Positions 1,505-38,523 of a stretch of DNA of 64,000 nucleotides are shown here, piece by piece. Source of the DNA: Candidatus Latescibacterota bacterium. GTDB lineage: Bacteria > Latescibacterota > UBA2968. The position numbers and the translations under genes were made by a program. The notes below the pieces were generated by a model. It did no database searches, was not told where the DNA came from, and saw only the letters and a program-made list of their open reading frames with translations. Location: assembly GCA_965204745.1 (NCBI GenBank), contig OZ242010.1:1152001-1216000 (forward strand), written 5' to 3'. Numbering within the stretch: position 1 is the first letter of the stretch; each line of letters begins with the position of its first letter.

Positions 1505-1568
1505 ATTATATGATACTATTTTATTATTTTTCAAATACTTATCTTCAATTTTTTTGATCAAAACCCGC

Positions 1569-3380: not shown

Positions 3381-3399
3381 CCAATAAAACGATCTCCCG

Positions 3400-3973: not shown

Positions 3974-4002
3974 TTGACAAAATCGTTAAAATTCAGTAAA
4001 TT
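3974..4002 (+). promoter_or_regulatory. Sigma70-like promoter of the dnaN operon
   Basis: TTGACA-17 nt-TAAATT. Confidence 0.65.
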
Positions 4003-4116
4003 GCGGTGTTGTAATTGAGCAAAAATCAATCATTTTTAGAAAAAAATGAAGTCCTACGTTCAATGGGATAAAACACCATTCACAAAGGGCTTGACACGCT
4101 CGGGAGAACCACATTT

Positions 4117-5286: not shown

Positions 5287-6371
5287 TGTATGTTTCATCA
5301 CTTAAACTCACCAATTTCCGAAACTTCGATCAGGCCGAGTTTGCGTTTGATAAAGCAAAAACGGCGATTTGGGCAGATAATGCCCGCGGCAAATCAAATG
5401 TTTTAGAAGCGTTGTATTTTTTGGCACTGGCGAAATCGGGTCGCGGTGCCAGAGATCGAGATGTGCTCAAGTGGGGTGCGGATTATTTCGTGATTGAAGC
5501 CCATATTGAGCGCGAAGATCATCCCCTTTCCATTCGCATTGCCTACGATCCCCGCGTTGGTAAGAAACAAGCCTTTCTCGCAGAAACTCCTCTCTCCCGC
5601 CTCGCAGATCTCATCGGCGCATTCAACGCTGTTCTGTTCTCTCCTGAAGATGTTGACCTCGTACTACGCGAACCCGCTCAGCGCCGTCGCATTTTAGATA
5701 TTCTCGTTTCGCAATCAAGCGCGTCCTATTTGGCTGATTTAGAAGGGTATCAGCGCGTTTTGGCACAACGCAATCGGTTGTTGAAAGATCGCAGTTCCGC
5801 GTTGCTATCGCATCCAGAACAAGTTGAACCCTGGAATGAACAGTTGGCCGAGTTAGGGGCGCGCATCGTTTCTCGGCGTCTCGAAGCACTCGATGATATT
5901 CAGCCTCTTTTGGCCGAATATTATCAGGCCATTGCCCCCATGTCGGAAAAAATGCAAGCGAGTTATCGCAGTCCCATATCTATGGAAACACGGGACCGGG
6001 GTCGAGATATTCTCTTTGAAGCATTGACGACTCGGTTGCCACAAGAAGTTGAACTGCGATATACGCTTACAGGGCCACATCGCGACAATTTGATTTTCGC
6101 TCTCGACGGCAAGGCCGCACATCAATTCGCGTCTAAAGGGCAACTGAAGACGGTTCTGCTTTCTTGGAAGTTGTCTGAAGCCACTTTTTTGGAGCGACAG
6201 ACCGGGTGGCGTCCCGTGTTGCTGATGGACGATGTGTTTTCAGAACTCGATCCAAAACGCGCACGAGCGGTGTTGAATATGATTCCCGATTTTGGGCAGG
6301 TGGTGGTGACTTCAGCTCGCGATCCGGATTTGGATTTTGAAGCGCACGGGTTTCGGATGTTGGGGTTGTGA
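5283..6371 (+). CDS. recF: DNA replication/repair protein RecF
   Basis: NFRN, NARGKSN P-loop, GPHRDNL, ASKGQ, LLMDDVFSELD. Confidence 0.97.
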   Translation: MMYVSSLKLTNFRNFDQAEFAFDKAKTAIWADNARGKSNVLEALYFLALAKSGRGARDRDVLKWGADYFVIEAHIEREDHPLSIRIAYDPRVGKKQAFLAETPLSRLADLIGAFNAVLFSPEDVDLVLREPAQRRRILDILVSQSSASYLADLEGYQRVLAQRNRLLKDRSSALLSHPEQVEPWNEQLAELGARIVSRRLEALDDIQPLLAEYYQAIAPMSEKMQASYRSPISMETRDRGRDILFEALTTRLPQEVELRYTLTGPHRDNLIFALDGKAAHQFASKGQLKTVLLSWKLSEATFLERQTGWRPVLLMDDVFSELDPKRARAVLNMIPDFGQVVVTSARDPDLDFEAHGFRMLGL

Positions 6372-6445
6372 TGGTTTGCATTCATTCTTTGTCGTTGCGA
6401 TTGACGTCGAGAAAAGCCAGTTTTGCCGGCGAGTGAGAGATTGCT

Positions 6446-6826
6446 ATGGATGCTGAGACGGATAGGCGAAAGAGTGGCGTTTATAGGCATCGGACGAGAG
6501 GTGCGGCATCCGGTCCCATTTCCGTTGGGAATGCCATTCGCCAAGTGGTGGATAGCTTGGGGATGACAGGACGGTTGAGAGAACAAAGGGTGTTGTCGTT
6601 GTGGGAAGAGGTCGTGGGTGAAGAGGTTGCCGCTGTCACCCAAGTTGAGGGTTTTTACTACGGATCGCCTCGAAATCGGCAATACAAAATTCCTCGGGGG
6701 CAATTGGTCGTTTCGGTAAAAAATTCCACATGGCGGCATTGGTTGAGCTTTCAACGAGAGACCATAAGGCAGAATTTGAACCGCGCAGTTGGAGGCGAGG
6801 TCGTCCAAATGATCAGGTTGCGGTAG
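6446..6826 (+). CDS. DciA/DUF721 family protein
   Basis: WEEVVGEEVA...LVVSVKNSTWRHWL pattern; classic recF-DUF721-gyrB position. Confidence 0.85.
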   Translation: MDAETDRRKSGVYRHRTRGAASGPISVGNAIRQVVDSLGMTGRLREQRVLSLWEEVVGEEVAAVTQVEGFYYGSPRNRQYKIPRGQLVVSVKNSTWRHWLSFQRETIRQNLNRAVGGEVVQMIRLR

Positions 6827-6905
6827 CAAAACCAAGACCCGTGCGAAAAATGGTTTAAGTCAGTCGTTCCCCTATCAATCCCCTCAGATCATTTCGTTCA
6901 AATAG

Positions 6906-8849
<1,944 letters not shown>

Positions 8850-8874
8850 TAAATGCAATGGAGAAGATGAGACG

Positions 8875-11388
8875 ATGATGGAACGTTCGCGGGTGATTCC
8901 GGTCGAGATCGGCGATGAGTTGAAGAAGTCGATGCTCGATTATTCGATGAGTACGTTGGTCAATCGCGCCTTGCCAGATGTGCGCGATGGTATGAAGCCA
9001 TCGCAAAGACGCATTTTGGTGGCGATGAATGACCTCGGCTTGGGGGCCAACCGGCAACATCGAAAATGCGCGCATATCGCCGGGCATACCTCGGGCAATT
9101 ATCATCCGCACGGCGAAGATATCGTCTATCCGACGCTGGTGCATTTGGCGCAGGATTTTAAGTTGCGCTATCCGCTCGTGGATGGGCAGGGCAATTTTGG
9201 GTCTATTGACGGCTATCCCCCTGCGGCGATGCGTTATACAGAAGCGCGTATGGCAGGGCCTGGGCAGGAGATGTTGAACGATATCGACAAGGAGACCGTG
9301 GATTACCGGCCCAATTACGACGAGCGGTTGCAAGAACCCGTGTTTTTGCCCTCTGCGTTTCCCAATATGGTTTGCAATGGCGCGGTGGGGATTGCGACGA
9401 CGATGGCGACTGCGATTCCGCCGCACAATTTGCGCGAGGTTGTCGACGCGCTCGTGGCGTTGATCGACAATTCCGAGTTGGATGTTGACGGGCTGATGGC
9501 CTATATCAAGGCACCGGATTTTCCAACCGGCGGCATTATCTACGGTTTGAGTGGTGTTTTGGACGCCTATCGCACCGGGCGCGGGCATCTGCGGATTCGC
9601 GCAAAAGCCGCTGTCGAAGAAGACAAAGGCGGGCGGGAGACCATTATCATCACCGAAATTCCCTATATGGTGAACAAGACCACGATGTTGGAGAAGATGG
9701 CGGATATGGTGCGCGAAAAGCGCATTGAGGGGATTTCGAATATCCAGGACGAATCTGACCGCGATGGGCTACGCATTGTGGTGGAACTCAAGCGCGATGC
9801 CGTGGGCGATGTGGTTTTGAATCAACTGTACAAAAACACGCAGTTGGAATCGACTTTTGCGGCCAATATGGTCGCGCTGGTCAATGGCCGGCCGCAGCAG
9901 GTGAACCTGAAGCAGATGTTGCGGTGTTATGTGGATCATCGCCACGAGGTGGTGAAGCGGCGCACGGAATACGAACTTCGGGTGGCTGAAGACCGCGCCC
10001 ATATCTTGGCGGGGTTGAAGGTCGCGCTGGACAATATCGCCGAGGTGGTCCTGATTATCCGAGGGTCGCGCGATCCCAATAACGCGCGTCGCCTGTTGCG
10101 GACGCAACTCGATTTGTCTGACCGCCAAGCACGAGCCATTTTGGCGATGACGTTGCAGCGGTTGACCAACCTGGAGCAACAAAAGATAGAAGACGAGTAT
10201 GCCGCGCTGATGAAAGAGATCGACCGGTTGCGCGGGATTTTGGACAGCCGCGAATGGCGGATGAAGATCGTCAAGGAAGAACTGGGCGTGATGCGCGAAA
10301 AGTACGGCGATGACCGGCGATCCGAAACCGTGATGTCCGCCCATGAGTTCAATATTGAGGATTTGATCGCCGAAGAAGATATGGTGATTACGATTTCGCA
10401 CAGCGGGTATATCAAGCGCATGCCGGTTTCGACCTATCGGGCGCAAAACCGGGGTGGCCGCGGAATTACGGGGATGCGAACAAAGGATGAAGATTTTGTC
10501 GAAAGTTTGTTCGTGGCTTCCACGCACAGTTATGTCCTCGTGTTGACAGATCGGGGGCATTGCGTGTGGTTAAAGGTGCATGAGATTCCGCAAGGCACGC
10601 GGCAGGCGCGCGGTCGGCCCATCGTCAATGTGGTGGAGATTCCCGAAGGGCACAAGGTGGCCGAGGTGGTGCCGGTGCGCGAGTTTGACGAAGATCACTA
10701 TTTGTTGTCCGCAACCCAAAAGGGTCAGGTTAAAAAGACCGCCCTGTCGGCTTATGGTCGCCCGCGCAAGGGGGGCATTATTGCGATGAATGTGCAGGAA
10801 GACGATCAGTTGATCAAGGCCGCGATTACATCGGGTAATGACGAAGTGATCATCGCCACAAAGCGCGGACAGGCCGTGCGCTTTGAAGAGAACAAGGTGC
10901 GGGCGATGGGGCGCAACTCGCGGGGTGTGCGCGGGGTGTCTCTGCAAGGAGATGATGTGGTTGTGGGGATGGTGGTGGTTCAGGCCGAGGAGGTTTTGTT
11001 GACGGTGTGCGCCCATGGGTATGGCAAGCGCACGCCGGTTTCGGATTATCGCCTGACGAACCGAGGCGGCAAAGGCGTGATCAATATCAAGACCACGGAC
11101 CGCAATGGCCCCGTGGTTTCGGTGATGTGTGTGAAGGCCGATGACGATGTGGTGATCGTGACGCAGAACGGCATCTTGATCCGGCAGGAGGTCAAGGGCG
11201 TGAGCGTGATCGGACGCAATACCCAAGGCGTGCGTTTGATCAATTTGGATGAGGGCGATCAGGTGATCGGCGTTGCACTGGTGGTCAACCAAGATGAAGA
11301 GGAAAAGGATCAAGCGGACGATGAAACAGCGATAGATGAACGCACACCCTCAACAGTAAGTGGCAATGGACGTCATGACTTGGCGTAG
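8875..11388 (+). CDS. gyrA: DNA gyrase subunit A
   Basis: RALPDVRDG, YHPHG, AAMRYTE catalytic Tyr, GyrA-box QNRGGRG, beta-pinwheel repeats. Start placed at ATG 8875 or 8878. Confidence 0.98.
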   Translation: MMERSRVIPVEIGDELKKSMLDYSMSTLVNRALPDVRDGMKPSQRRILVAMNDLGLGANRQHRKCAHIAGHTSGNYHPHGEDIVYPTLVHLAQDFKLRYPLVDGQGNFGSIDGYPPAAMRYTEARMAGPGQEMLNDIDKETVDYRPNYDERLQEPVFLPSAFPNMVCNGAVGIATTMATAIPPHNLREVVDALVALIDNSELDVDGLMAYIKAPDFPTGGIIYGLSGVLDAYRTGRGHLRIRAKAAVEEDKGGRETIIITEIPYMVNKTTMLEKMADMVREKRIEGISNIQDESDRDGLRIVVELKRDAVGDVVLNQLYKNTQLESTFAANMVALVNGRPQQVNLKQMLRCYVDHRHEVVKRRTEYELRVAEDRAHILAGLKVALDNIAEVVLIIRGSRDPNNARRLLRTQLDLSDRQARAILAMTLQRLTNLEQQKIEDEYAALMKEIDRLRGILDSREWRMKIVKEELGVMREKYGDDRRSETVMSAHEFNIEDLIAEEDMVITISHSGYIKRMPVSTYRAQNRGGRGITGMRTKDEDFVESLFVASTHSYVLVLTDRGHCVWLKVHEIPQGTRQARGRPIVNVVEIPEGHKVAEVVPVREFDEDHYLLSATQKGQVKKTALSAYGRPRKGGIIAMNVQEDDQLIKAAITSGNDEVIIATKRGQAVRFEENKVRAMGRNSRGVRGVSLQGDDVVVGMVVVQAEEVLLTVCAHGYGKRTPVSDYRLTNRGGKGVINIKTTDRNGPVVSVMCVKADDDVVIVTQNGILIRQEVKGVSVIGRNTQGVRLINLDEGDQVIGVALVVNQDEEEKDQADDETAIDERTPSTVSGNGRHDLA

Positions 11389-20230: not shown

Positions 20231-20320
20231 GTACATATCGTATAATTGGGCGGTACCGGTCAACTGACACGGCTTTTTGAACAAGGTCGCCATGGACCTC
20301 ATAGCTATTGGGAGGAAGGT

Positions 20321-21343
20321 ATGAACCGCCCCAAAACAAAATTGCAGGGCATTCAGGATTCGACGAATACAAGCACCCTTGGTAGCAATATTCCCGGACA
20401 TGCGTTGAAAACGGTTTCTCTTTTTACCGGATGCGGGGGTTCCGATAAAGGGCTGATTGACGCAGGTTGCGAGATTCTGATGGCAAACGATATTCTGGCC
20501 TATGCCAAAGAGGTCTATGAGGCCAATCTCCCCGAGACCGATTTCAAAACCGATAGCATTGAACAAATCAAAGCCTTTCCGTCAGCAGATGTTTTGGCGG
20601 GATGCTATCCTTGCCAAGGCTATTGTCAAGGCGGAGCACGCGATGCCGGGCGCAAAGTCAATAGACTTTACCGCGAATTTGATCGCGCTCTGCGAAAGAT
20701 CCGTCCCAAAGTCTTTATTGTAGAAAACGTACCTGGCATGGCGAGAAGTAACAATCGACATTTTTTGAAAGCACAACTCGTCCGTTTCCGTTTCGCTGGA
20801 TACCGCGTCAACTGGGACTTCATCAATGCCGCACAGTACGGTCTCGCACAAGAAAGACAACGGATTTTTATCGTGGGCATTCGCTCAGATTTCGGCATAA
20901 AATACGAGTTTCCAAAACCCACACACGGACCGGGATTGCAACCGGTGAAAACACAGCGAGATTTCTTAGGAGACTTAATGGAAGAATGGCCTGAAGGCGA
21001 ATTTTGCGATCAGGATTTTCATTGGTACTATCTTTCCCGTGACCGCTACCGCGGATGGGATGAACCAAGCAAAACAATACTCGCAAACGCACGCCACATG
21101 CCGTTGCACCCCATGAGTCCGCCGCTCAAAAAAATAGGAAAAGATAAATGGGTTTTCCAAGGAGACCCCCAAAAAGCCCGCAGGCTTTCGTACAAAGAAG
21201 CAGCGGCTCTTCAAGACCTCGTCGACTGGACGTTTCCAGATACGACGGGATTGATGAATAAATACAAGGTCATTGGCAATGCCGTGCCGCCGATGATCTT
21301 TCGACAAATTTTTGAAGCCCTACCGGGAGAGGTGTTCTCATGA
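20321..21343 (+). CDS. DNA (cytosine-5)-methyltransferase
   Basis: SLFTGCGG motif I, YPCQ motif IV, ENV motif VI, QERQRIF motif VIII, IGNAVPP motif X. Confidence 0.95.
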   Translation: MNRPKTKLQGIQDSTNTSTLGSNIPGHALKTVSLFTGCGGSDKGLIDAGCEILMANDILAYAKEVYEANLPETDFKTDSIEQIKAFPSADVLAGCYPCQGYCQGGARDAGRKVNRLYREFDRALRKIRPKVFIVENVPGMARSNNRHFLKAQLVRFRFAGYRVNWDFINAAQYGLAQERQRIFIVGIRSDFGIKYEFPKPTHGPGLQPVKTQRDFLGDLMEEWPEGEFCDQDFHWYYLSRDRYRGWDEPSKTILANARHMPLHPMSPPLKKIGKDKWVFQGDPQKARRLSYKEAAALQDLVDWTFPDTTGLMNKYKVIGNAVPPMIFRQIFEALPGEVFS

Positions 21344-22431
21344 AATTTAATACACTCAATATTGACGAGCTCGAATTTGACAAGCAAAATCCGCGTCTGC
21401 CGACTACGGTAGGTACTAAAGAAAGCGAAATTATCAAGTATTTGGCGGCAAAAACCGGCATTGAGGACTTGATGATCTCTATCGGAGAGAACGGGTTTTT
21501 CCCAGGCGAAGCCATCGTCGTAACTCCTGCTGAAGGCGACAAATACACAGTCTTGGAGGGCAATCGCAGACTGGCAGCATTGAAACTGTTGCAAGACCCG
21601 GACTTGGCGGGTAACCGCCGCAGCATTACAAGAGCGTCAGAAGATAGAAAAAATAAGCCAACCGATATTCCAGCATATATCGTCAACTCAAGGGATGATG
21701 CCCTGCAATATCTGGGTTTTCGCCATATTTCTGGGGTCCAACGATGGGATCCTTTGGCAAAGGCACGATACTTGAAATTGTTGTTCAAGCAAGCATCGGG
21801 TGAACCGGAAAAACGCTGTATCGAAGTTGCCCGTGAAATTGGTAGTAGGCGCGATGCAGTCAGGCGTAGTCTGGATGCTTTGGCGGCGTACGAAGCCATT
21901 GAGGAACGCGACTTTTTTGATATTGACGATCTAAACGAAGGAAGTTTTCGGTTTGGCACGTTCTATACGGCTATCGCAAACGTGGAAATCGCGTCATTTG
22001 TTGGCGTCAGAGAGGAAGACGGTAGCGCGACACACCCCATTGCCAATCCAAAATCCTTAAAGGAAGAACCTCTTGAAGAACTCACGGAGTGGATGTTCAA
22101 AAAAGATAGTCAGGGTTCCACACGCCTCGGCGAGTCTCGAAATATTCCCAAATTAAGTGCTGTTATAGAAAATTCTAACGCACTGGAAAAGTTCCGGCAA
22201 GGTGTGTCATTAGATAGTGCTTTTAGTGCTACAATAGATAACAGGGAGGTATTTTTACAAGATATAACCTTAGCCATAGATCATCTTGAGCAAGCAAAAG
22301 ATCATCTTAAACAAGCAAACTTGAATCTATACTCCCTATCGTCTGATGACCAAGAGGCAGTGGAGAGTGTCCAAGAAGCAATGAACATGCTTGATGACGC
22401 AATCAACCGCTTAAAGGTGGATTCACAATGA
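21340..22431 (+). CDS. ParB/Srx N-terminal domain protein
   Basis: DKQNPRL, SIGENGF, VLEGNRRLAALK, RHISGVQRW; ATGA overlap with the MTase. Confidence 0.85.
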   Translation: MKFNTLNIDELEFDKQNPRLPTTVGTKESEIIKYLAAKTGIEDLMISIGENGFFPGEAIVVTPAEGDKYTVLEGNRRLAALKLLQDPDLAGNRRSITRASEDRKNKPTDIPAYIVNSRDDALQYLGFRHISGVQRWDPLAKARYLKLLFKQASGEPEKRCIEVAREIGSRRDAVRRSLDALAAYEAIEERDFFDIDDLNEGSFRFGTFYTAIANVEIASFVGVREEDGSATHPIANPKSLKEEPLEELTEWMFKKDSQGSTRLGESRNIPKLSAVIENSNALEKFRQGVSLDSAFSATIDNREVFLQDITLAIDHLEQAKDHLKQANLNLYSLSSDDQEAVESVQEAMNMLDDAINRLKVDSQ

Positions 22432-23407
22432 TTGATTTTCGTTGGAGTCAAGAAATAATTGAAGATGTCGTTGATTTAGCCGACTGCATTGAGTTAGTCG
22501 TCGCATTGAAGAATGACGACTACGACGGCTACGACGGTTGTTTCACACGCGCACATTTTAACGCAGTTCAAAGTGAAATTTTTGGTGAGGATGACAATTT
22601 TTTGCAAGGCGAGGAAGTCGATGATTTTAATCGCTACTTTGAAGATGCGATGAATCTTATCAAAAACCGCGCCTTATGGTTGGGGAAAACTTATCCCTTC
22701 AGGCAAGATGATGACGAAGTGCAGTTTGCACCTCAAACGTCCAAGAAACACTATTTGTCGTATCTGTTCTTGCTAGTCTGTTCATGTCACAATCGATAAC
22801 TCGGATTCCCTCTTTGCAGTATAAGTTGAGGATAGAGTTTGAAACTCTATGCAAAGAGGCGATGCGGGCATTGTTTCCCAAGTGGGCAGAGGTTTTTCTG
22901 TTCAGTCAAAACAGCGAGGAAAGAAAAAATCTTGGGCGGTCCGTACGCAAGGCCATTCCGGCCTTGGCGAAAAAATTAAACGCCAAAGCGTACCAAAAGG
23001 AAATAGATAAACTGCCCGACACGCAACGCGAGTGTGGCATTGATTTAATTGCCATTTGTTCTTTTGATGACGAATTAGAGTATCCATTTTTCGCCTTCGC
23101 TCAATGCACAGTAAAAAAAGAAGAGTGGTGGACCAAAAAACATGAAGCCCAAAGTCGTCAGGCCTTATCGGGGTTCGTGCGGTTAGATACAGATCATACA
23201 AATTTTTTGTTGATTCCTCATTTCCCGCGCATCAACCTCACAGAATGGCGGGAAGATCGGTCACGTACCGTCAACTGCATTCTCTGTGACCGATACAGAA
23301 TATGTCGGTTGCTGGAGAAATCTAAACCATTGACATGCCAAGTTCTGCCGCGTGGTATGTATGATATTTTCCAAGAGATTCAAAAACACCTGCCAGAGCA
23401 TCACTGA
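22428..23407 (+). pseudogene. Putative PD-(D/E)xK-like endonuclease split into two ORFs (22428-22799 and 22784-23407), probably by a frameshift
   Basis: First part ends YPF...YLFLLVCS; second part has FETLC...ECGIDL...FAQC (E...GxD...QC pattern). The frames overlap by 16 nt and the second start has no clear RBS. Confidence 0.55.
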
Positions 23408-23436: not shown

Positions 23437-25965
23437 CTATTCCCCCTCCCCCCACACCCGCCCCACCGCATCGCATATCTTCTTCTCGAATCGCTCGATC
23501 AATTCCCTGCTGCCATCCACCAACACCTGCTCCGCCTCGATCTCGGCGATGATGGCTTGTTGCGTTTTAAGGGATGGAATCGGGATTTTGTAATTTTCTA
23601 TCACTGACCTCGGAACCCGTTGCAATCCGCCCGTTCCGGTCATTTTGGGCGTCGCCCATGCACGGAAGGTGGGCGTGGCTATGCACAGGAAAATCCATTC
23701 GGGAAGCGCGGTCTCCGATGGCCTCAAAACATAGAACTCGCTTGAGCCGAAGCCGATTCCATTATATAGCCCTTTAGCAATACCAGCTTTGCCGTTTTCA
23801 AAGCACGGCGTCACCTTTGCAATCAGCACATCGTCGTTCTTGAAATATGTATAACTCGTGCCGACTTCCTCTAAACGCTTACTGTCTTTGGGCGAAAAGA
23901 ACATTGTGTTTTCTCCCATATCTGACATAGGTACGAATGAAACGGTCGTTGCCTTATCAAGTTCGGCGAGTTCTGATTTTCGCGGATTTACAGTACAGGC
24001 TTTGCCTATCTCCACCACCGGCCACGTCGGGTCTATCTCAATATGCGGTCGATAGTTCTCCACAACCGCCCGCGCTCCGTCTATCACCTTCTGATAGCCC
24101 TCAATTTCCGCTACGATTTCTCGCTGTACTTCCAGCGGCGGAATAGGAAATTGGAATGAGGAGTATTGCTTGGCGTTGATGTTTGTAAGTGTGCCAGTCT
24201 TGGAATTGCTAAATATCCATTCACGCCAAGAGTCCGATTTGGTAACGTGATACACATACTCGGGAATCGCTTTGGCGGGATTGACACGGAAGCGAATCAA
24301 ATACCCAGCGTATTGATAAGTGCCCGGTAGCGTTTTGTGAATATAGGTACGACCGACCGATCCAGAGCGTGCGATGAGTAGATCGCCCGGTTCAAGAAAT
24401 CGGTCTGGTTCGACTGTCGATGGCGACACAATATCTCCTGCTTTTAGTTCTCCCTGATCTGAAATGTCAGTAATTCGCACATAGCGCACTTTGCCATCGT
24501 ATAGAACTTTGCGTGCGCCAGAACCGTATTGCGGTTTGCCTAAAATGACCTCGCCGAGCGTGATCCAATCATATTTCGTATGCCCCGTTTTGATCTCTCG
24601 ATACCGCTCCCCGCTCAAATTGTACTCCCCACCCTCCGCGATCCGCTCCTTTCCAACGACCAACCCGCGTGCTGTTGTGTACTGTATGCCTTGCTCTGCG
24701 ACTTGGGAGGCGTCCACCGGTTTGCCCGTCCGCAAACGGCTCAGGTATTCGGCGAGTTCGGCTTGCACTTGTGGCAGGTCGTTCTCTGCGATGGGGCGGC
24801 GTTGCGCGCCCAAGTCGAAGCCGTCGTTTGCCACTTTGAAAAACGCGAGGTGATCGGTCTGTCTGGCGAGAGATTTGTCCAAAATCAGGATGGAAGTCTT
24901 GACGCCGGAATAGGGTTGGAATACACCTGCCGGTAGCGAGACCACCGCCACGAGATACTCGTCAACTAGCATCTTTCGCAACTGCTTATGCGCGTTCTGG
25001 CTTTGGAAAATGATCCCCTCGGGCACGATGATGCCCGCCCGCCCATTGGCCATCAGATGCTCGGCGATGTAATCCACGAACAGCACCTCGCTGCGTTTGG
25101 ATTGCACCGAAAAACGACTGTGCGGGCGAATGCCCCCCTTCGGCGACATAAACGGCGGATTGGCGAGAATCACATCGGCGCGCTCAGCCCAACGCGCCTC
25201 GCTCGTCAGCGTATCGTATTCATGAATCTGCGGCGCGACAAAGCCGTGCAAATACATGTTCACCAGCGACAGGCGCACCATATCCGGCGAGATGTCATAC
25301 CCCTTGAAATTGACCGCGAGTGCCCCCTTGTCGTCGGGGGTCAGCGTACTGTTGCCCTTGTCGTCAGTATTGGTCTTGAGAATGTGCTTGTAGGATGAAA
25401 TCAGAAAACCAGCCGTGCCACAGGCCGGATCGAGCACGGTCTCATCCTTCTTTGGATCGAGAATGGCGACCATGAAATCGATGATATGGCGCGGGGTGCG
25501 GAACTGCCCGGCATCGCCTTGCGAACCGAGCACAGACAGCAGATACTCAAACGCATCGCCCAACCGCTCGGAGTGATCGTATTCAAACTCGTCGATCACC
25601 TTGAGGAAGGCGCGCAGGGTCTCCGGATCTCGATACGGCAAAAAGGCATTGTTGAAAATGCTACGGAACAACTGTGGAATGCCGGGATTCTCGGGCATTG
25701 TCGCAATGGCCTCTGCGTATCGGTTGAGCATATCGTAACCGCCAAGGCCGCCACGCATCAGTTTTGCCCAGCCATAATGGGCGAACTCGCCGGCGAAAAA
25801 CCCGCGCTTCCCACCCAACGCCTCGCTCTGCGCGTCGATGTCGTCCATGAACTTGTAGATCAGCGCGATAGTAATTTGCTCCACCTGACTTTTGGGATCG
25901 GGCACCTTACCGACCAAAATATCGCGCGCCGTATCAATCCTGCGCTTCGTCTCTGCGTCCAACAT
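23437..25965 (-). CDS. Type I RM methyltransferase fused to its specificity subunit (HsdM-HsdS)
   Basis: GQFRTPRHI, DPACGTAGF, NPPF, then two TRDs with IPPLEVQREIV and IPSLKTQQAII conserved regions. Start MLDAETKRR at 25965; the upstream ORF extension reads through repeats. Confidence 0.92.
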   Translation of the reverse strand: MLDAETKRRIDTARDILVGKVPDPKSQVEQITIALIYKFMDDIDAQSEALGGKRGFFAGEFAHYGWAKLMRGGLGGYDMLNRYAEAIATMPENPGIPQLFRSIFNNAFLPYRDPETLRAFLKVIDEFEYDHSERLGDAFEYLLSVLGSQGDAGQFRTPRHIIDFMVAILDPKKDETVLDPACGTAGFLISSYKHILKTNTDDKGNSTLTPDDKGALAVNFKGYDISPDMVRLSLVNMYLHGFVAPQIHEYDTLTSEARWAERADVILANPPFMSPKGGIRPHSRFSVQSKRSEVLFVDYIAEHLMANGRAGIIVPEGIIFQSQNAHKQLRKMLVDEYLVAVVSLPAGVFQPYSGVKTSILILDKSLARQTDHLAFFKVANDGFDLGAQRRPIAENDLPQVQAELAEYLSRLRTGKPVDASQVAEQGIQYTTARGLVVGKERIAEGGEYNLSGERYREIKTGHTKYDWITLGEVILGKPQYGSGARKVLYDGKVRYVRITDISDQGELKAGDIVSPSTVEPDRFLEPGDLLIARSGSVGRTYIHKTLPGTYQYAGYLIRFRVNPAKAIPEYVYHVTKSDSWREWIFSNSKTGTLTNINAKQYSSFQFPIPPLEVQREIVAEIEGYQKVIDGARAVVENYRPHIEIDPTWPVVEIGKACTVNPRKSELAELDKATTVSFVPMSDMGENTMFFSPKDSKRLEEVGTSYTYFKNDDVLIAKVTPCFENGKAGIAKGLYNGIGFGSSEFYVLRPSETALPEWIFLCIATPTFRAWATPKMTGTGGLQRVPRSVIENYKIPIPSLKTQQAIIAEIEAEQVLVDGSRELIERFEKKICDAVGRVWGEGE

Positions 25966-25978
25966 AGCCTTTCCTTTT

Positions 25979-26498
25979 TGAGCCACAAAAAGCACGAGCG
26001 GGGTACAACTGGCGATAGCCAGTTCAAAGGCACAGAATGGATTTTGCCCCTTTTTGTGTTTCTGTGCCTTTTGTGGCAATTCTTCGTCTTGCGCCCTGCT
26101 CTATTCATGAGCCACGAAAAGCACGGAAAACACAGCATGAACGGGTTTTGCCCCTTTTTGTGTTTCTGTGCCTTTTGTGGCAATTCTTCGTCTTGCATCC
26201 TGCTCTATTCAGGAGTCACGAAAAGCACAGAAGGCACAGCATGAACGGGTTTTGCCCCTTTTTGTGTTTCTGTGCCTTTTGTGGCAATTTTTCGTCTTGC
26301 GCCCTGCTCTATTCATGAGCCACAAAAAGCATGGAAAACACAGCATGAACGGGTTTTGCCCCTTTTTGTGTTTCTGTGCCTTTTGTGGCAATTTTTCATC
26401 CTGCGTCCTGCTCTATTCATGAGCCACGAAAAGCATGGAAAACACAGCATGAACGGGCTTTGCCCCTTTTTGTGTTTCTGTGTCTCTTGTGGCAATTT
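25979..26498. repeat. Tandem array of a 104-bp palindromic REP/BIME-like unit
   Basis: Unit starts at 26109, 26213, 26317 and 26421 (period 104), plus a modified first copy from about 25980. Arms GCCACRAAAAGCAYRGAARRCACA and TGTGTTTCTGTGCCTTTTGTGGC. Confidence 0.95.
25997..26026 (+). mobile_element. 30-bp hairpin micro-element, copy 1
   Basis: AGCGGGGTACAACTGGCGATAGCCAGTTCA interrupting the left arm of the first repeat unit. Confidence 0.6.
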
Positions 26499-26504
26499 TG
26501 CAAG

Positions 26505-26882
26505 TCACAAAACGAGTTTTTTGACTTGGAGTTTTAACCCTCCGAAGTTGATGAGCATAGCATCGCGTTGACGAGATGCGCGGATATAGCCCAGGGTTTG
26601 CGCGATATGTTCTGGAGCCAATGTCCTGACAGCCTTAAGTTCAAGAATAAGGCAGTTTTCCACAAACAAATCGGCGAAGTAGTTGCCGAGGAGCGTACCG
26701 TCTTCATCATATACCTTGAGAGATTTTTGTTGCTCAACAGCCAAGCCAATTTTTCTCAAACGGTGGGCCATCCCATTCTCATACACCTTCTCGAGATGCC
26801 CGTTTCGAAGATAGGTATGCAATTCAAAGGCTGTTTGGCGAATCCTGTCGCATAAAGCCAGAATGCGCTCTTCATCTCTCAT
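26505..26882 (-). CDS. GxxExxY protein (PD-(D/E)xK nuclease superfamily)
   Basis: GHLEKVY motif, YFADLFVE, LILELKAV, AQTLGY, LINFG; AAGGAG RBS before ATG 26882. Confidence 0.95.
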   Translation of the reverse strand: MRDEERILALCDRIRQTAFELHTYLRNGHLEKVYENGMAHRLRKIGLAVEQQKSLKVYDEDGTLLGNYFADLFVENCLILELKAVRTLAPEHIAQTLGYIRASRQRDAMLINFGGLKLQVKKLVL

Positions 26883-26900
26883 CGTTTCTCCTTTGTGTTT

Positions 26901-26923
26901 TGAACTGGCTATCGCCAGTGTAC
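26901..26923 (-). mobile_element. 30-bp micro-element, truncated inverted copy 4
   Basis: Minus strand GTACACTGGCGATAGCCAGTTCA inside GCCACAAA...AAACACAAAGG, just upstream of the GxxExxY RBS. Confidence 0.55.
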
Positions 26924-26946
26924 TTTGTGGCGTGCTTTCCTTTTTC

Positions 26947-27019
26947 AGCCACAAAAAGCATGGAAAACACAGAATGAACGGGTTTTGCCCCTTTTTGTGT
27001 TTCTGTGCCTTTTGTGGCT
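26947..27019. repeat. Single palindromic unit of the same repeat family, upstream of GxxExxY
   Basis: AGCCACAAAAAGCATGGAAAACACAGAATGAACGGGTTTTGCCCCTTTTTGTGTTTCTGTGCCTTTTGTGGCT. Confidence 0.92.
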
Positions 27020-27026
27020 ATTGACT

Positions 27027-29555
27027 TCAAGTACTAAACTGATTCAACGACACGTAGTCCTTGATATAATCCGGTACCGTAGCATGAAACGCCTGCGGCA
27101 CGGCGCGATAGTCGTTCAGGGAAAACGCCGCGTTGGTCGCCAACTCTGGGAAGCGTCGCTCGTCGATGATGTCCCGCGTGCCTCCGTTGGTGAGGTATGC
27201 TTTGAAGTAGGACTTGACCGCGAGAAGGGCCTCGGGGTCTTCCAACTTTTGATCCGCGAGGAACTTGTCGAACTCCTCGTCTAACAACTCGTCTTTGGAC
27301 TTGAAGCGCGGGATGAGGCCCAAGGCTTTTTCCAGAATTTCGCGCAGGGTCAAGCGGCGATCCACATCCGCGGCGCGGCGCAGCTTGTCCAATGTGTAAT
27401 ACTCCTCTGGCTTGTTGAAAACCTCGCGGGTGACGTAGTCGGCAACGCGCTCCCACTGACCCGCTTCAACCGCCTGCACGACGGTCTCGTCCGCGCGCAC
27501 CGTGTCCGCAAACCGGTCGAAAAACATGCGGTCGATCCGCATGCCCTCTGGCCCGATGCGTTCCTCCCGAACCTCTGCGAGTGCGTCCGGCCCCAAATGT
27601 TGATAGGCACCGAGATAGGCAGTCCGCTCATCAACGCCTTCTCGGGCTTGGGCATCGCCGGGTAGTCGGGGCAATTCCAACACCTCGTCGTAATTGAACT
27701 CGGTCTCGAAGTATTCGCAGTTGGCAAAAAAGTCAAACAGCTTAAACGCGGTCTTCTGTGGCTCGGCAACATCGTCTTTCAACGCGTCGTCGAAAAGCAG
27801 GTCGAGAAAATTGTGTTGCCGAGTGCCGCGGCCCTTGATCTGGATAAAGTCCGTCGGCGAGAAAATGGGGCGAAACAGGCCCAGGTTGAGAATGTCCGGG
27901 CAGTCGTACCCCGTGGTCATCATCCCGACTGTCACGCAGACGCGGGCCTTGCCCGTGCGGTATTCGGACAGGAAATTGCCCGCGCCGAGCAACTTGTTAT
28001 TGGCGAAATTTTTGGTGAACTGTTGCGCGCGTTGCACCTGTGACGTGACTTGCACCGCGAAATCCGACCGATACTTGCCGGGAAACATGCGATAGGCGAT
28101 TTCATTGAGGAGATTGGTCAACCGCGCCGCGTGGTTCTGGCTGACCGCAAAAATGATGGACTTGCCGATCTCGTTGCTGACCGGATCGTGCAGCGCGTTC
28201 GCCATAAACGTCTTGCAAAAAAGCGCGTTGGTCTCATCCGAGAAAAACGTCCTCTCAAACGTGCGTTGCTTATAGGTCGCCTCTTGATCCTCGCCCGTGT
28301 CGTCGGTGAACACAACCATAAACCCTTGCTCAGAAAGGAGTTGTGCGGTCACGTCCGTGCGCGCATCCACCACCGTCGGGTTGATGAGCACCCCATCTTT
28401 CACCCCGTCCAAGAGGGAATAGCGGAACGTCGGATCTCCGCTCTCGCAACCAAACGTGCGGTACGTGTCGCGCAACAACCTGCGCTCTGTCTCCCGAGGA
28501 TCAGCCGCATCGGCATGGGCAACGCCTTTCAGATAATCGCGCGGCGTTGCGGTCAGCCCCAACTTGTAACCGACAAAATAATCGAACACGGCCCGCGCAT
28601 TGCCGCCAATGGAACGGTGCGCCTCGTCTGAAATCACCAAATCAAAATCCGTCGGCGAGAAAAGCGACTGGTACTTGTTGTCGAACAGCAGGGATTGCAC
28701 CGTGCTGACCACGATCTCCGCGCCGCGCCAATCCTCCCGTCGTTCCTTGTAAATCACCGTGTCAAAATCATTGGCGAGCAAGCCCCCAAACACCCCGGCG
28801 GCTTGGGTTTCCAATTCCAGCCGATCCACCAAAAACAGCACCCGCCGCGCATTGCCAGTGCGGAGAAACAACTTGATAACCGCAGCCGAGACGAGCGTCT
28901 TGCCCGTGCCAGTCGCCATTTCAAAGAGAAAGCGATCCGCGCCCTCCCTCACTGCGCGTTGCAAGGCGTGAACGGCCCGCGTCTGATACGGGCGCAAAAA
29001 GCGCAACTCGTGCGCCTTAACAAAGTCCTCGCGCTCGTGTTCATTTCGCCACGCCGCTTCTGCCGCATAATTGGGCCGTTGCGTCAGCGCGATATAATCA
29101 GCCCCAACCCGCTCGGCAACCAACCCCTGCGGATTGGGTTCGACCTTTAGGTACCGGCCCACCGAATCCGGCGTGGGGAACGCCGTGATGATGTGCGGAT
29201 TGCCCCGGTCCAAATCCCAAAAGTAGTGCAGGTTGCCGTTGGACATGATAACGAACCGGCAGTTCAGGGAACGTGCGTACCGGCGCGCCTGCTCCTTGCC
29301 GACGAGCGGGGACTTGTCCTCGGACTTGGCTTCCAACACGACCAACGGAAAGCCCCGGTCATCCAACAACAGAAAATCGACAAACCCCTTCCCCGCCTTC
29401 TCGAAATCATCCCCCATGCCGTCGAGATCAGCCGCCGCAATCGCCACGCTGAGTTCCAACCGGATATTGGCGGGCGTACCCCCTTCATCAAAAAACCGCC
29501 ACCCCGCCGCCTCGAGCAACCGATTGATTTTTATCCGCGCTGTCGCTTCATTCAT
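27027..29555 (-). CDS. hsdR: Type I restriction endonuclease R subunit (EcoEI/EcoAI-like)
   Basis: VDFLL...LEAK nuclease motif, MATGTGKT Walker A, DEAH box, GLTATP, TTGYD, QIKGRGTR. Confidence 0.92.
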   Translation of the reverse strand: MNEATARIKINRLLEAAGWRFFDEGGTPANIRLELSVAIAAADLDGMGDDFEKAGKGFVDFLLLDDRGFPLVVLEAKSEDKSPLVGKEQARRYARSLNCRFVIMSNGNLHYFWDLDRGNPHIITAFPTPDSVGRYLKVEPNPQGLVAERVGADYIALTQRPNYAAEAAWRNEHEREDFVKAHELRFLRPYQTRAVHALQRAVREGADRFLFEMATGTGKTLVSAAVIKLFLRTGNARRVLFLVDRLELETQAAGVFGGLLANDFDTVIYKERREDWRGAEIVVSTVQSLLFDNKYQSLFSPTDFDLVISDEAHRSIGGNARAVFDYFVGYKLGLTATPRDYLKGVAHADAADPRETERRLLRDTYRTFGCESGDPTFRYSLLDGVKDGVLINPTVVDARTDVTAQLLSEQGFMVVFTDDTGEDQEATYKQRTFERTFFSDETNALFCKTFMANALHDPVSNEIGKSIIFAVSQNHAARLTNLLNEIAYRMFPGKYRSDFAVQVTSQVQRAQQFTKNFANNKLLGAGNFLSEYRTGKARVCVTVGMMTTGYDCPDILNLGLFRPIFSPTDFIQIKGRGTRQHNFLDLLFDDALKDDVAEPQKTAFKLFDFFANCEYFETEFNYDEVLELPRLPGDAQAREGVDERTAYLGAYQHLGPDALAEVREERIGPEGMRIDRMFFDRFADTVRADETVVQAVEAGQWERVADYVTREVFNKPEEYYTLDKLRRAADVDRRLTLREILEKALGLIPRFKSKDELLDEEFDKFLADQKLEDPEALLAVKSYFKAYLTNGGTRDIIDERRFPELATNAAFSLNDYRAVPQAFHATVPDYIKDYVSLNQFST

Positions 29556-36152: not shown

Positions 36153-36285
36153 TGTTGACATTTGCGCCCTGCAACTGACAAGCGGTTTATATCGCAGGAT
36201 ATGCTCTCGGTTTGAGAAACTGGGATAGGTACTTCGGAGTTCTCTGTTTGCTCCCACTTTCATCGCAAAAAATAAAATGTCAACA
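36153..36285. mobile_element. Putative 133-bp MITE
   Basis: Perfect terminal inverted repeats TGTTGACATTT (36153-36163) and AAATGTCAACA (36275-36285); no coding capacity. Confidence 0.45.
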
Positions 36286-36316
36286 AGCGGGGTACAACTG
36301 GGCGACAGCCAGTTCA
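36286..36316 (+). mobile_element. 30-bp micro-element, copy 2
   Basis: AGCGGGGTACAACTGGGCGACAGCCAGTTCA followed by AAGGC. Confidence 0.6.
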
Positions 36317-36580
36317 AAGGCGAACGTCATGACGTAAGTAATCCAGTGACCTTTGCCTTTATTTTCTGAGGAAGGTACGCCGGTTTGGTGGATTGGACAA
36401 GATCCAATGATTGTGCGAGGTTTGATCGACCGTTGCTTTGAGGCGAGAAGCAGGGAGGCAGGCTCTCGGCTTCTTTCTTGACAGGCCCTATTGCCTGACC
36501 TATATAGATGTTGTTGATTATATGATTTGGTTTTACGGGCAAGGTCGCGGGGTGCTGTTTTCCGATGAGTTGATTGCGCC

Positions 36581-38413
36581 ATGATGAAAGACGATGCGAT
36601 GGAGCGGATCTCGCGCTGGTTTCCCTGGGTTGTGGGCGGGGTTGCGGTTGTGATCCGTTTTTTTTATTTGCGATCATTTTGGGCAGATCATCCGTTTTCG
36701 CAAAAGTTGATTTCGGATGCGCGGATTTTTGACGATTGGGCATGGCGCGTCGCGTCCGGGGATTGGCTCGGCCCTGCCGAAGTGTTTGTTTTGCCGCCGC
36801 TATATCCATACCTCATGGGCGTTGTGTACGCGGTTGTTGGGCACGCGCCCAAAGTGATCGCCGCGTTGCAGGCCGTTGCCGGTTGCGCGACTGCTGTTTT
36901 GGTTTATCGCTTGGGGGCGCGGCATTTTGGTGCAGGTGCCGGGCTGATGGCGGGGTTGCTGTTTGCCGGGTATGGGCCGCAGATGTTTTACGAAGGCATG
37001 TTGCTGGGCACTTCTTGGGCTGCGCTTCTCTGTGTGTTGGGGCTGGCGTTGATCGATGCGGGGAACGGTGAGCGCGGGGGGTGGTATTGCGGAGTGGTCG
37101 GATTGGTTTTTGGGCTGGCAGTGCTGATGCGGCCCAATGCGTTGGCGGCCATTCCGTTTGTGCTGGTAGGCGCGTGGTGGGGGCATTACAGAGACAAGCC
37201 GGTGCGAATCTCTGTGAAATTGGGCGGTTGCTTTTTTGTGGGGTTGATGGTGCCGTTGCTCCTGTGCGGTTTGCGGAATGGACTAGTGGCGGACGATTGG
37301 GTGTTGATAACAGCGCACGGGGGCATCAATTTTTACATGGGCAATCACGCAGACGCGCCAGGCTGGTTTTCAGCACCGGCTGGCGTGGATGCACAGATTA
37401 CGCCGGCCGGGGCGCAGGGCAATTTGGAAGGCCCGCGCCGCGTGGCCGAGGCCGCGCTTGGGCGGTCGTTGAAGGCGTCGGAGGTTTCGGCATTTTGGTT
37501 CGACAAAGGGCTTGCGTTTTGGCTGGACGATCCGTGGGGGGTGCTCGCGGTGACATGGCGGAAGGTGCGGTTGTTTGCGTTGGGGTACGAGGTGCCGCTC
37601 AATTACAATTTTTATTACCAGCGAAAGTTTTCCGCGTTTTTGCGCTTTCCCCTCACCGAGTTGTGGGTGTTGTTGCCGCTGGCCCTTGTCGGGCTCGCGG
37701 TGCATATCCGACGGTTTGATCGGCATGCGGTGTTGTATTTGTGGCTCGTCGGCTATGCAGCAGGGGTGGTGGCTTTTCATGTGTCGTCTCGCTACCGCAT
37801 GCCCGCCATTCCCATCGCGATGGTGTTTGCGGGCATGGGGGTATGGACGCTGGTAGGATGGATACAGGCACGCCGGTGGAGATCTCTGTACATTGGCGCG
37901 GCGATGCTGGTCTTGCTGTGGGCGGGTTATCGCGTGGCGTTGGACGCGCAACTCGCCAAAACGAATTGGGGAATGGATCCCTTCAACTTGGGCACGGCTT
38001 ATTTGTGGCAAAATGAAAATGAACGCGCATTATCCCTTCTCGAAGAAGCAGAGAGCTATGGGCAGGGCGATGCGTCTTTGTATTACAATTTGGGATTGGC
38101 CTATGCGCGGGCGGAAAAGACAGATGCCGCAGAGAACGCATATCGCCGGGCGCTGTTGCAAGACCCCGATCTGGTCAGTGCGTATGTCAATTTGGGCAAT
38201 ATTCTGTTTCACGAGGGCGAGTTTCAAGACGCCATCAGTACCTATCAGGAGGCATTGAAGCGGGATGCCGATACGCACAATGCACGGGCGAATATGGGCT
38301 GGGCGTATTTGTCTTTGGGACGGGTTGAGGACGCGCGAAGAGCATGGCGCAGGGTTTTGCAAACCGCGGCCAATCACCCTTCGGCAAAGGCGGGGATGGC
38401 GCGGATTCAGTGA
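36581..38413 (+). CDS. GT-C fold (GT39/PMT-like) membrane glycosyltransferase with C-terminal TPRs
   Basis: SDARIFD, PPLYPYL, LMRPN, GGINFYMGN, SRYRMP; TPRs YYNLGLAY and YVNLGNIL. Confidence 0.85.
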   Translation: MMKDDAMERISRWFPWVVGGVAVVIRFFYLRSFWADHPFSQKLISDARIFDDWAWRVASGDWLGPAEVFVLPPLYPYLMGVVYAVVGHAPKVIAALQAVAGCATAVLVYRLGARHFGAGAGLMAGLLFAGYGPQMFYEGMLLGTSWAALLCVLGLALIDAGNGERGGWYCGVVGLVFGLAVLMRPNALAAIPFVLVGAWWGHYRDKPVRISVKLGGCFFVGLMVPLLLCGLRNGLVADDWVLITAHGGINFYMGNHADAPGWFSAPAGVDAQITPAGAQGNLEGPRRVAEAALGRSLKASEVSAFWFDKGLAFWLDDPWGVLAVTWRKVRLFALGYEVPLNYNFYYQRKFSAFLRFPLTELWVLLPLALVGLAVHIRRFDRHAVLYLWLVGYAAGVVAFHVSSRYRMPAIPIAMVFAGMGVWTLVGWIQARRWRSLYIGAAMLVLLWAGYRVALDAQLAKTNWGMDPFNLGTAYLWQNENERALSLLEEAESYGQGDASLYYNLGLAYARAEKTDAAENAYRRALLQDPDLVSAYVNLGNILFHEGEFQDAISTYQEALKRDADTHNARANMGWAYLSLGRVEDARRAWRRVLQTAANHPSAKAGMARIQ

Positions 38414-38472
38414 GGAATGAGAAGTAACCACATAAGAACGCAGATGAAAGGCGAAATGCAACTTTTGCCACG

Positions 38473-38502
38473 AGCGGGGTACAACTGGCGACAGGCCGTT
38501 CA
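38473..38502 (+). mobile_element. 30-bp micro-element, copy 3
   Basis: AGCGGGGTACAACTGGCGACAGGCCGTTCA between GCCACG and AAGGC. Confidence 0.6.
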
Positions 38503-38523
38503 AAGGCGAGATACCCGCCTGTC

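Follow-up and report, generated by a model that had tools for sequence, protein, structure and literature searches.

Two kinds of described system resemble the element considered here. Repetitive extragenic palindromic sequences (REPs) and their REP-associated tyrosine transposases (RAYTs) are treated in a series of papers that are drawn on here in part (PMC3733652, PMC3479197, PMC8266576, PMC5581495), and a GTAG or CGTC tetranucleotide tag marks one end of a REP in the portion of that literature used (PMC3733652). Intervening sequences (IVSs) of rRNA carry an open reading frame (ORF) in a stem-loop: the Coxiella IVS, in the part of its description consulted, measures 428-444 nt, has a 28-bp terminal inverted-repeat stem with the ORF in its loop and is cut by RNase III (PMC4990558). 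We describe an element that is comparable with both from a 64,000-nt stretch of the genome of Candidatus Latescibacterota bacterium (contig OZ242010.1, positions 1,152,001 to 1,216,000), which as a whole is called the window below. In it, the spacer between hsdR and hsdMS of a type I restriction-modification (RM) operon holds a gene of the GxxExxY family together with palindromes cognate to that gene. The spacer is a hitch-hiking insert and not RM machinery. The reading favoured here, at a probability of about 0.5, is that the insert is a selfish cassette: its nuclease would read and cut its own arms, which are arrays of short words, and the cassette would be copied by host repair.

Comparison with REP/RAYT systems gives both likenesses and differences. 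Each has a small nuclease gene flanked by cognate, clade-specific palindromes, each lacks target duplication, and each shows solo palindromes and clusters near the gene. RAYTs have an HUH/Y1 transposase fold, whereas the cassette protein is predicted to have a PD-(D/E)xK fold of the RecB/Cas4-like type, and no HUH/Y1 (IS200-like) transposase was found between the palindromes of the window with Pfam or NCBIfam. REPs are 20-40-bp GC-rich hairpins with the GTAG/CGTC tag, whereas the cassette arms are ~28 nt long and consist of three 9-10-nt, A-rich words in direct orientation; neither tag occurs in the arms, whose outer ends are of the AATRG-GCCAC class and read AGCCAC in the window itself. The cassette ORF usually lies inside its palindrome, cassette palindromes, in the window and the loci compared, are gene-proximal where REPs occur in hundreds of dispersed copies, and several genomes carry multiple, often broken, copies of the GxxExxY gene. 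An initial annotation of the window had cast the gene as the counterpart of a RAYT seated between REP arrays. The clade-specific flanking palindromes uphold that analogy; the geometry departs from it, with the ORF inside the palindrome in the order arm-ORF-arm.

The spacer is 1,060 nt long (27026..25967, in a minus-strand operon) and contains one intact GxxExxY gene, with a single palindrome on its upstream side and a tandem row of five 104-bp units on its downstream side. The annotation had described this split of hsdR and hsdMS by about 1.06 kb correctly, including the palindrome count, the subrepeats and their GGG-TTTT-GCCC centre. The GC content of the spacer is 46.1%, compared with 57.8% for hsdR, 53.7% for hsdMS and 54.5% for the window. 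Read in the orientation of the gene, the order is the hsdR stop, a solo palindrome, a second copy of the ribosome-site segment of hsdMS, the gene's own split arm, the gene, CTTGCAAAATT, the array, its split last arm and the hsdMS ribosome site. The features of the locus in this order are as follows.

27027..29555, minus strand: hsdR, the gene that opens the operon, for a type I restriction subunit of the EcoAI type, its start set at the ATG of MNEATARIK in an open frame that extends to 29612 (Pfam ResIII 2.5e-34 and HSDR_N; NCBIfam restrict_EcoAI 4.3e-64; PADLOC REase_I 1.6e-59).
26947..27022, no strand assigned: solo palindrome P6, situated between the gene's own arm and the stop of hsdR, in which a GGGGCAAAACCC centre separates two ~28-nt arms built from CACAAAAGG-type words (97% repeat copy; arms 26947-26966 and 27000-27019; fold -33.6 / -36.7 kcal/mol, z about -6).
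26932..26946, minus strand: copy of the AAAAAGGAAAG ribosome-site-like segment that also precedes hsdMS (repeat pair 25969-25994 and 26935-26960, 96% alike).
26890..26931, minus strand: the gene's own upstream (L) arm, GCCACAAAG...ACACAAAGG, split by a mirror copy of the host repeat X1 at 26899-26922 (perfect 21-nt inverted repeat 26008-26028 and 26899-26919).
26505..26882, minus strand: GxxExxY gene, 125 aa, predicted RecB/Cas4-like PD-(D/E)xK nuclease (motifs G28xxE31xxY34, D71, E81-x-K83 and Q95xxxY99).
26035..26499, no strand assigned: tandem array, each unit a 73-nt solo palindrome plus a 31-nt spacer (Tandem Repeats Finder, repeat families).
25981..26081, no strand assigned: last palindrome of the array, its hsdMS-proximal arm carrying the 37-nt host repeat X1 at 25995-26033 (66% repeat copy).
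23437..25966, minus strand: fused hsdM-hsdS at the end of the operon, coding for a methyltransferase with two target-recognition domains (Pfam N6_Mtase 5.9e-50 and Methylase_S 6e-16 in two stretches; PADLOC MTase_I 9.1e-98 and Specificity_I 1.4e-65).

Tandem Repeats Finder returns one array (26035-26499, period 104, 4.5 copies, 92% matches). A repeat search gives six copies of a 76-nt unit, five at 104-nt spacing and one at 26947-27022, all 92-100% identical to the reference except the leftmost (66%), which diverges because X1 sits in its arm. The arm pattern has six matches in the window against 0.00 expected, all of them at the hsdR-hsdMS locus. X1 itself, GAGCGGGGTACAACTGGCGA(T/C)AGCCAGTTCAAAGGC with a 6-bp hairpin, is a dispersed repeat with four copies in the window (25995-26033; 26899-26922, a 24-nt piece on the minus strand; 36283-36322; 38470-38508), two of which are mirrored within the cassette arms and two of which flank a glycosyltransferase/tetratricopeptide-repeat gene at 36581-38413. 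An AAGGAG ribosome site follows the L arm, 7 nt ahead of the GxxExxY ATG. For comparison, 53 loci encoding relatives of the window's GxxExxY protein were taken from a genome collection (L001 to L053). Uninterrupted homologues of the window's L arm are present in L004, L009 and L013, and among Latescibacterota relatives mirrored inserts occur in no arm in L002, in one arm in L001 and in both arms in L003; this series of mirrored inserts points to arm-to-arm copying. L005 has a similar array with a period of ~186, as do L006 and L011 with a period of ~169. The 31-nt spacer of the window's array has no match in any fetched locus and was found only in the window, which suggests that the array is a recent local amplification, and the AAAAAGGAAAG segment copy likewise is a trace of local duplication. 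Judged from these repeats, the window's cassette is a rearranged copy with arms interrupted by a host repeat, one upstream solo, and a solo plus 31-nt spacer amplified to five downstream units.

The operon into which this unit is set encodes an R subunit with helicase and nuclease, an M methyltransferase and S specificity domains (Pfam, NCBIfam and PADLOC), by which type I RM systems are recognized, with hsdM and hsdS fused into a single 843-aa protein. Matches to hsdR occur in 64 plasmid records, of which 52 are from Escherichia. In the one record inspected for an empty site, E. coli plasmid NZ_CP034592.1 (L061), 45 nt separate the orthologues of hsdR (63.6% identity) and of the methylase (59% over 447 aa), with neither gene nor palindrome in that spacer. 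Gene order here reads as an empty site, and the window's spacer as an insert; the annotation had named such an empty-site allele as a check on its proposal. The L061 pair (4028-10571) lies on an IncF conjugative plasmid beside the tra region and is followed by a gene for a TrlF-family AAA-like ATPase; its methylase has 677 aa and, by BLASTP, lacks the specificity domains of the window's protein. Within the comparison set, hsdR orthologues that are 71-75% identical lie upstream of GxxExxY, and hsdMS orthologues downstream, in L001, L002, L003 and L005 (Latescibacterota) and in L004 and L007 (Terriglobia), the only 6 of the 53 loci with the RM operon of the window. No counterparts of the genes that surround it in the window are present in the other loci with this operon. 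An RM trio that is found in two phyla without shared neighbours suggests that hsdR-GxxExxY-hsdMS is a mobile package.

These observations bear directly on an explanation in which gene and hairpin array belong to the type I system and set the hsdR:hsdMS ratio or control establishment in a new host. That the hsdR-GxxExxY-hsdMS order is kept in the window, four Latescibacterota loci and two Terriglobia loci speaks for it, as do the solo palindromes before hsdMS in each RM-bearing locus, the arrays in the window and L005, and the hsdMS ribosome site, which comes immediately after the last arm of the array. We nevertheless regard such a regulatory role as highly improbable. The orthologous operon works without the insert on E. 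coli plasmids, as judged from the single record inspected, and all other homologues occur in non-RM contexts. A scan of the locus found neither a sigma-70-like promoter nor a terminator-like site on the operon strand, its sole terminator-like hairpin being X1 on the other strand, and the array, with its spacer unique to the window, is recent. The RM setting emphasized by the annotation is thus real in the window and is not a trait of the family, being tied to one orthologous operon.

Arms of the same design accompany the gene well beyond this operon. The exact 21-nt arm pattern has no match in the genome collection, which does not include the source genome, and a short-word BLAST of the window's repeat unit against the 53 loci gives matches right at the gene ends. 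In the usual form, an arm (e.g., GCCACAAAAGGCACAAAAACACAAAAAG) ends ~10 nt ahead of the ATG, the ORF follows, and the inverted arm CTTTTGTGCTTTTTGTGGC runs from the stop codon, so that the palindrome's loop contains the ORF. Between the end of the L arm and the ATG are 2-20 nt, and the inverted arm begins at or within the stop codon; across 26 units, unit length is 426-604 bp and the arms span ~20-45 nt. Outer unit ends read AATRG and then the first word even across clades at 40% protein identity, in a consensus read by eye from the same 26 units. A 15-nt arm motif (≤2 edits) lies within ~8-25 nt of both gene ends in nearly all loci with proteins at least 57% identical; over 27 such loci it is found at 2.10/kb up to 700 nt from the gene versus 0.033/kb farther out, and 33 loci of other clades have 4 matches in 366 kb. 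When 130 nt upstream were aligned to the reverse complement of 130 nt downstream and scored against 100 shuffles, inverted repeats with z≥5 were found at 30 of 45 homologues versus 2 of 66 control ORFs from the same loci (the 45 loci leave aside L020, L028 and L047, with truncated or interrupted genes, and the partial matches L049-L053). Both results bear out the annotation's proposal that the palindrome is cognate to the GxxExxY gene. Relatives of 40-52% identity lack the window's motif and have their own arms of the same build, with CCGCAAAGAACGCAAAGAACGCAAAG in planctomycetes, CACTGATCTTTATGAT in Ignavibacteria and GGAACACAGATAACACGGATT in Chitinophagaceae; words in the arms of distant clades include CGCAAAGAA, ACACGGAT/CACTGAT, CACAGAGGA and CGCGAAGG.

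Arms and gene occur together in at least 15 unrelated gene neighbourhoods in several phyla among the 53 loci, such as cusB-cusA, MoxR-BatA and SDR/FG-GAP, and also next to PhoD, PilO and a sulfatase. Pfam annotation covered the neighbours other than 12 RM-flank ORFs (L001-L004, L007), the L005 hsdR ORF, L025:1937-5938 and L047:535-6879. All examined units lie between protein-coding genes. No CRISPR or helicase partner of GxxExxY was found in the window or the annotated loci, and Pfam gave nothing relevant to a second cassette family, such as S23p, among small neighbouring ORFs. In L010, the gene at 9986-10375 and the next copy downstream are tandem duplicate GxxExxY genes, each after the same arm in direct orientation. 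Sister proteins in L025 (6029-6415) and L026 (10001-10378), joined with an SH-aLRT branch support of 100, occupy the same cusB-cusA spacer in two Verrucomicrobia in opposite orientation to the operon, with the L025 cusA ORF identified by position alone; this arrangement fits inversion between inverted arms or two independent insertions.

The arms change with the protein. Mapped onto a tree of 43 proteins (42 intact ORFs plus the window), the repeat word class requires 11 changes, compared with a shuffled mean of 23.0 and minimum of 18 (0 of 500 shuffles as low), so that palindrome family and protein clade co-vary, as the annotation had suggested might be checked. Word labels were assigned by a 150-nt two-strand rule that leaves 11 rows as 'none'; an earlier rule based on 70-nt flanks was dropped, with 19 of 43 rows unlabelled. 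Orthologous loci and gene-arm linkage inflate the co-variation, which is therefore counted as supporting, and not as proving, recognition of the arms by the protein. The sequences of the arms are themselves conserved: the best arms of 14 loci match the window's arm at 22-27 of 28 nt, with 13-61% identity at four-fold sites and 54-87% in the proteins. Among 32 arm pairs selected for a visible inverted repeat, there are 129 arm-to-arm mismatches, of which 73 are transversions and those compatible with G.U pairing number 24 in the sense and 32 in the antisense direction. Of 21 arms, 19 have their best internal period at 9-10 nt, and in 12 of the 21 the period surpasses shuffles at p≤0.05. These patterns indicate that the arms are selected as sequence, beyond the stem alone. 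Conserved words, a 9-10-nt period, no strand bias and shared outer ends are more in keeping with arrays of words bound by protein than with a simple stem of RNA or DNA.

This conclusion matters for a second explanation, in which the cassette acts at the RNA level like the ORF-bearing IVSs of 23S rRNA. Its arms would base-pair within the transcript of the operon, the stem would be cut by RNase III or other RNases of the host, and the cassette mRNA would be released or silenced with the host operon left functional; the nuclease would not act on the arms, and the words would be ribosome-site-like or RNA-protein signals. The likeness to S23p IVSs of Coxiella and Leptospira, as far as the source extends in the part used, is close: both are units of ~430-470 nt whose loop holds one small ORF and whose termini are inverted repeats of ~28 nt, in the size range and architecture of the Coxiella IVS, both are sporadic and horizontally acquired, and how the IVS moves is likewise unexplained (PMC4990558). 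Contexts are mostly co-directional with the neighbouring genes (29 versus 9 antisense and 1 mixed, by our tally), the last word of the L arm, just ahead of the ATG, overlaps a ribosome-site-like purine run, and the palindrome units fold strongly as RNA (-31.9 to -36.7 kcal/mol, z -5.3 to -6.2). The palindrome folds about equally strongly on both strands, however, no sense-strand excess of G.U-compatible mismatches is seen and more than half of the mismatches are transversions, and primary sequence and word periodicity are conserved far beyond the needs of a stem. The nine contexts antisense to host genes also speak against an RNA-level role, and Rfam gives no match over 25800-27200 at E≤1. The cassettes differ further from IVSs in lying between protein-coding genes and not in rRNA helices, in encoding a predicted nuclease and not the four-helix S23p protein, and in having arms that are word arrays of conserved primary sequence. 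On balance an RNA-level cassette is rather unlikely.

The GxxExxY protein has a predicted active site that is intact. It matches PF13366 (PDDEXK_3; E 3.9e-28, 98.6 bits versus a cut-off of 22) and TIGR04256 (GxxExxY; E 2e-32, 112 bits versus a cut-off of 35), the sole Pfam/NCBIfam match of the spacer ORF. G28, E31, Y34, E35, D71, E81, K83, Q95 and Y99 are invariant in an alignment of 37 sequences made without the row of L037, which carries a stop codon, and these residues comprise the PD-(D/E)xK triad and, as Q95xxxY99, the QxxxY motif of RecB-type nucleases. An AlphaFold2 model (pLDDT 97, pTM 0.89) has an alpha-beta-beta-beta-alpha-beta core, and its top Foldseek match in the Protein Data Bank (PDB) is the Cas4 protein SSO0001 (4ic1; E 6.4e-4, TMq 0.60), followed by the AdnAB nuclease domain, lambda exonuclease and RecE and, more distantly, Hjc; a sequence search of the PDB gave only chance ankyrin matches. 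A two-copy (homodimer) prediction scored 0.00 without controls and weighs neither way. Alignment, model and structural neighbours agree in pointing to a RecB/Cas4-like protein with intact catalytic residues, in line with the PD-(D/E)xK assignment in the annotation. Fold and motifs (E, D, ExK, QxxxY) are shared with the Cas4/RecB family, whereas the GxxExxY protein comprises the 125-aa core only, without the cysteines of the Fe-S cluster. In the section of a PD-(D/E)xK survey used here, the GxxExxY family is given as 'Unknown' (PMC3424549), and elsewhere part of a report notes that the domain is called cas4 by another tool, a confusion that involves myRT and CRISPRone (PMC8934634). At E≤0.001 the family numbers 26,114 representatives (9,864 at E≤1e-10), with some two-domain forms among them; proteins of 250-270 aa with two GxxExxY domains are present in the protein library (P0124-P0128 noted). 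Relatives of 70-88% identity occur in several phyla. Between the window and L001, amino-acid identity is 86% and identity at four-fold sites 60%, which indicates purifying selection on the protein.

Solo palindromes and broken genes show what becomes of the cassettes. Aligned to the L004 unit without its ORF, the window's solo matches the arm plus 5' leader in positions 1-41 and, in positions 46-76, the other arm along with the final 11 nt of the ORF, a short alignment that suggests that solo palindromes are ORF-less units. L047 (Versatilivorator) has two different internal-deletion derivatives that both keep their two arms, and several homologue copies are pseudogenes with internal stops. A change of Tyr34 to a stop is common to L014, L016, L028 and copy A of L047 (four copies in two Versatilivorator genomes), so that an inactive allele was copied after it arose or was spread by conversion. 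A second element resembling a MITE (a miniature transposable element bounded by inverted repeats), with ends GAGCCTTTTGCAAAATTCG, is present at 10213-10376 in L028 and in the flanks of L009, L013, L014, L016 and L047. It interrupts the GxxExxY gene in L028 and encloses whole units, which were multiplied along with it, in Versatilivorator and Terriglobia, and CTTGCAAAATT after the stop codon in the window is a remnant of it. The cassettes resemble insertion sequences (ISs) and MITEs in having terminal inverted repeats around one gene, in internal deletions that give ORF-less inverted-repeat pairs and in nesting in other elements. They differ in lacking a target-site duplication and any DDE, HUH, serine or tyrosine transposase, in measuring only ~450 bp and in encoding an enzyme that, as a predicted hydrolytic nuclease, would be incapable of strand transfer.

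Such nesting leads to a third explanation, that the arms mark the ends of an element that is itself non-autonomous and depends for its movement on an unlinked transposase or recombinase, and that GxxExxY is cargo with a cellular role of its own, for example as a defence, anti-defence or repair nuclease. Versatilivorator units have been multiplied within a larger element with different ends even where deletions or a stop codon disrupt the gene, a type I RM operon retains the gene in two phyla, a Fic gene adjoins it in Treponema, and purifying selection acts on the protein, all of which would suit a passenger. PADLOC and PHROGs models give no family match to the protein, though, and among ~40 contexts one orthologous operon is defence-related. 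No transposase lies beside the units among the annotated loci, apart from an IS in L005, no target duplication is seen, and arm type changes with protein clade, where it should instead track the unlinked transposase. A passenger gene is thus unlikely, and slightly more so than an RNA-level cassette.

In the favoured reading, the spacer is an insertion from a widespread family of very small cassettes with a basic unit of ~450 bp, composed of a ~28-nt arm of three 9-10-nt words, the 125-aa GxxExxY gene and the same arm inverted. A solo palindrome would be two arms joined with the ORF missing. The nuclease would bind the words of its own arms as an oligomer and would cut at or in the palindrome, either as duplex or cruciform or as a single-strand hairpin. 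Host repair of the break would then copy the cassette by gene conversion of ORF-less into ORF-bearing palindromes, which would be homing-like because the ORF splits its own target, and the same break repair may also yield local tandem amplification. The window's cassette would ride on a type I RM operon that itself moves horizontally. What the data establish is the architecture, the insertion, selection on the arm sequence, the co-variation of arms and protein, decay to ORF-less forms and an intact catalytic site; binding, cutting, the route of copying and selfishness are inferred. Free-standing homing endonuclease genes offer a parallel, as selfish nuclease genes that split their own symmetric target, spread via repair of the cut and decay into pseudogenes, provided that homing does take place here; the cassette differs in that its target would be a repeat that it carries itself and not a conserved host gene, and in having no intron or intein.

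Several observations weigh against this reading. A hydrolytic PD-(D/E)xK nuclease cannot by itself join DNA, and no direct repeats that would mark a target-site duplication lie outside the arms in the 26 units examined. The arm pattern has no copies elsewhere in the window, 14 of 90 motif matches lie more than 700 nt from the gene, mostly in L005, L026 and L047, and the palindromes are mostly within ~2 kb of it. With palindromes so gene-proximal there is little sign of REP-like spread, and within the window and these loci the dispersal envisaged in the annotation is not borne out. Inverted repeats scored z<5 at 15 of 45 loci. Convincing arms are lacking in L027, L041 and L042, and the gene of L048 is a pseudogene. 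The top-scoring repeat is an outer MITE end and not an arm in L013 and L014, and is apparently unrelated to word-array arms in L033 and L039. An independent plasmid sample gave 8 matches, of which 6 were tested (H4 and the unannotated L059 were set aside), and a strong inverted repeat was found in only 2 of the 6, namely L055 from Bacteroides finegoldii (CACAGAGGA words, z 13.4) and L060 from Bernardetia (z 8.7). L058 from Treponema has an 11-nt inverted repeat (z 2.3), L054 and L057 have direct-orientation repeats on both sides, and L056 from Sphingomonas, between fabD and fabG, has an upstream arm only. Co-variation of arms and proteins could stem from gene-arm adjacency, linkage and shared descent alone; near-copies cluster. 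In Versatilivorator, the copies with the Tyr34 stop lie inside another MITE-like element that has its own inverted ends, so that it was not their own protein that multiplied them. Between leuS and serS in Ignavibacteria and between the GT2 and GT1 glycosyltransferase genes in Chitinophagaceae, orthologous copies have been retained over long periods and decay in place, which implies that movement, if any, is rare.

Other parts of the window give the genomic setting. A row of rnpA, dnaA, dnaN, recF, dciA, gyrB and gyrA at 864-11388 places the window in the region of the chromosome's replication origin, and GyrB, whose best named relatives are 79% identical, assigns the genome to Latescibacterota. 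Directly beside the type I operon, 20246-23407 encodes a C-5 cytosine methyltransferase (PF00145, 1.7e-55) and three ORFs without Pfam matches, a row that may be a second RM system; if so, the region would be a small defence island. An N6/N4 DNA methylase with N-terminal HEAT repeats and then a 967-aa ORF without a Pfam match (58509-63147) may be another modification-linked system. A nucleotidyltransferase/HEPN pair that resembles a toxin-antitoxin system lies at 50062-50807 between an amino-acid kinase gene and purD, as another small insert in a row of housekeeping genes.

The GxxExxY proteins form a very large family to which no function has been assigned. In the literature searched, to which subscription journals and the NCBIfam text did not belong, nothing was found that links GxxExxY/PDDEXK_3 (PF13366/TIGR04256/IPR026350) to repeats or to a function; a selfish unit made of this nuclease plus its cognate palindrome is unreported there and could prove to be a new class. 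A gene that is embedded in clade-specific, conserved arms and moves with them between phyla has a concrete, testable job, with its likely substrate written beside every gene. Generalized to the family, the proposal would be that GxxExxY/PDDEXK_3 is the nuclease of an unrecognized class of ~450-bp prokaryotic selfish elements, in which each ORF occupies the loop of a palindrome of its own, the nuclease reads the clade-specific arms with their 9-10-nt words and copying proceeds without a transposase through cut ORF-less palindromes and host repair. We put this forward tentatively, as a possibility that is somewhat more doubtful than the cassette reading of the window itself. If true, it would add a new nuclease class to the few repeat-mobilizing systems (RAYT/REP, IS200/IS605), would account for many unexplained small inserts inside bacterial operons and would offer compact, sequence-programmable nuclease/site pairs. 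GxxExxY cassettes would then be a PD-(D/E)xK counterpart of REP-RAYT, and might supply the long-missing mobility logic of IVS-like 'ORF in a stem-loop' elements.

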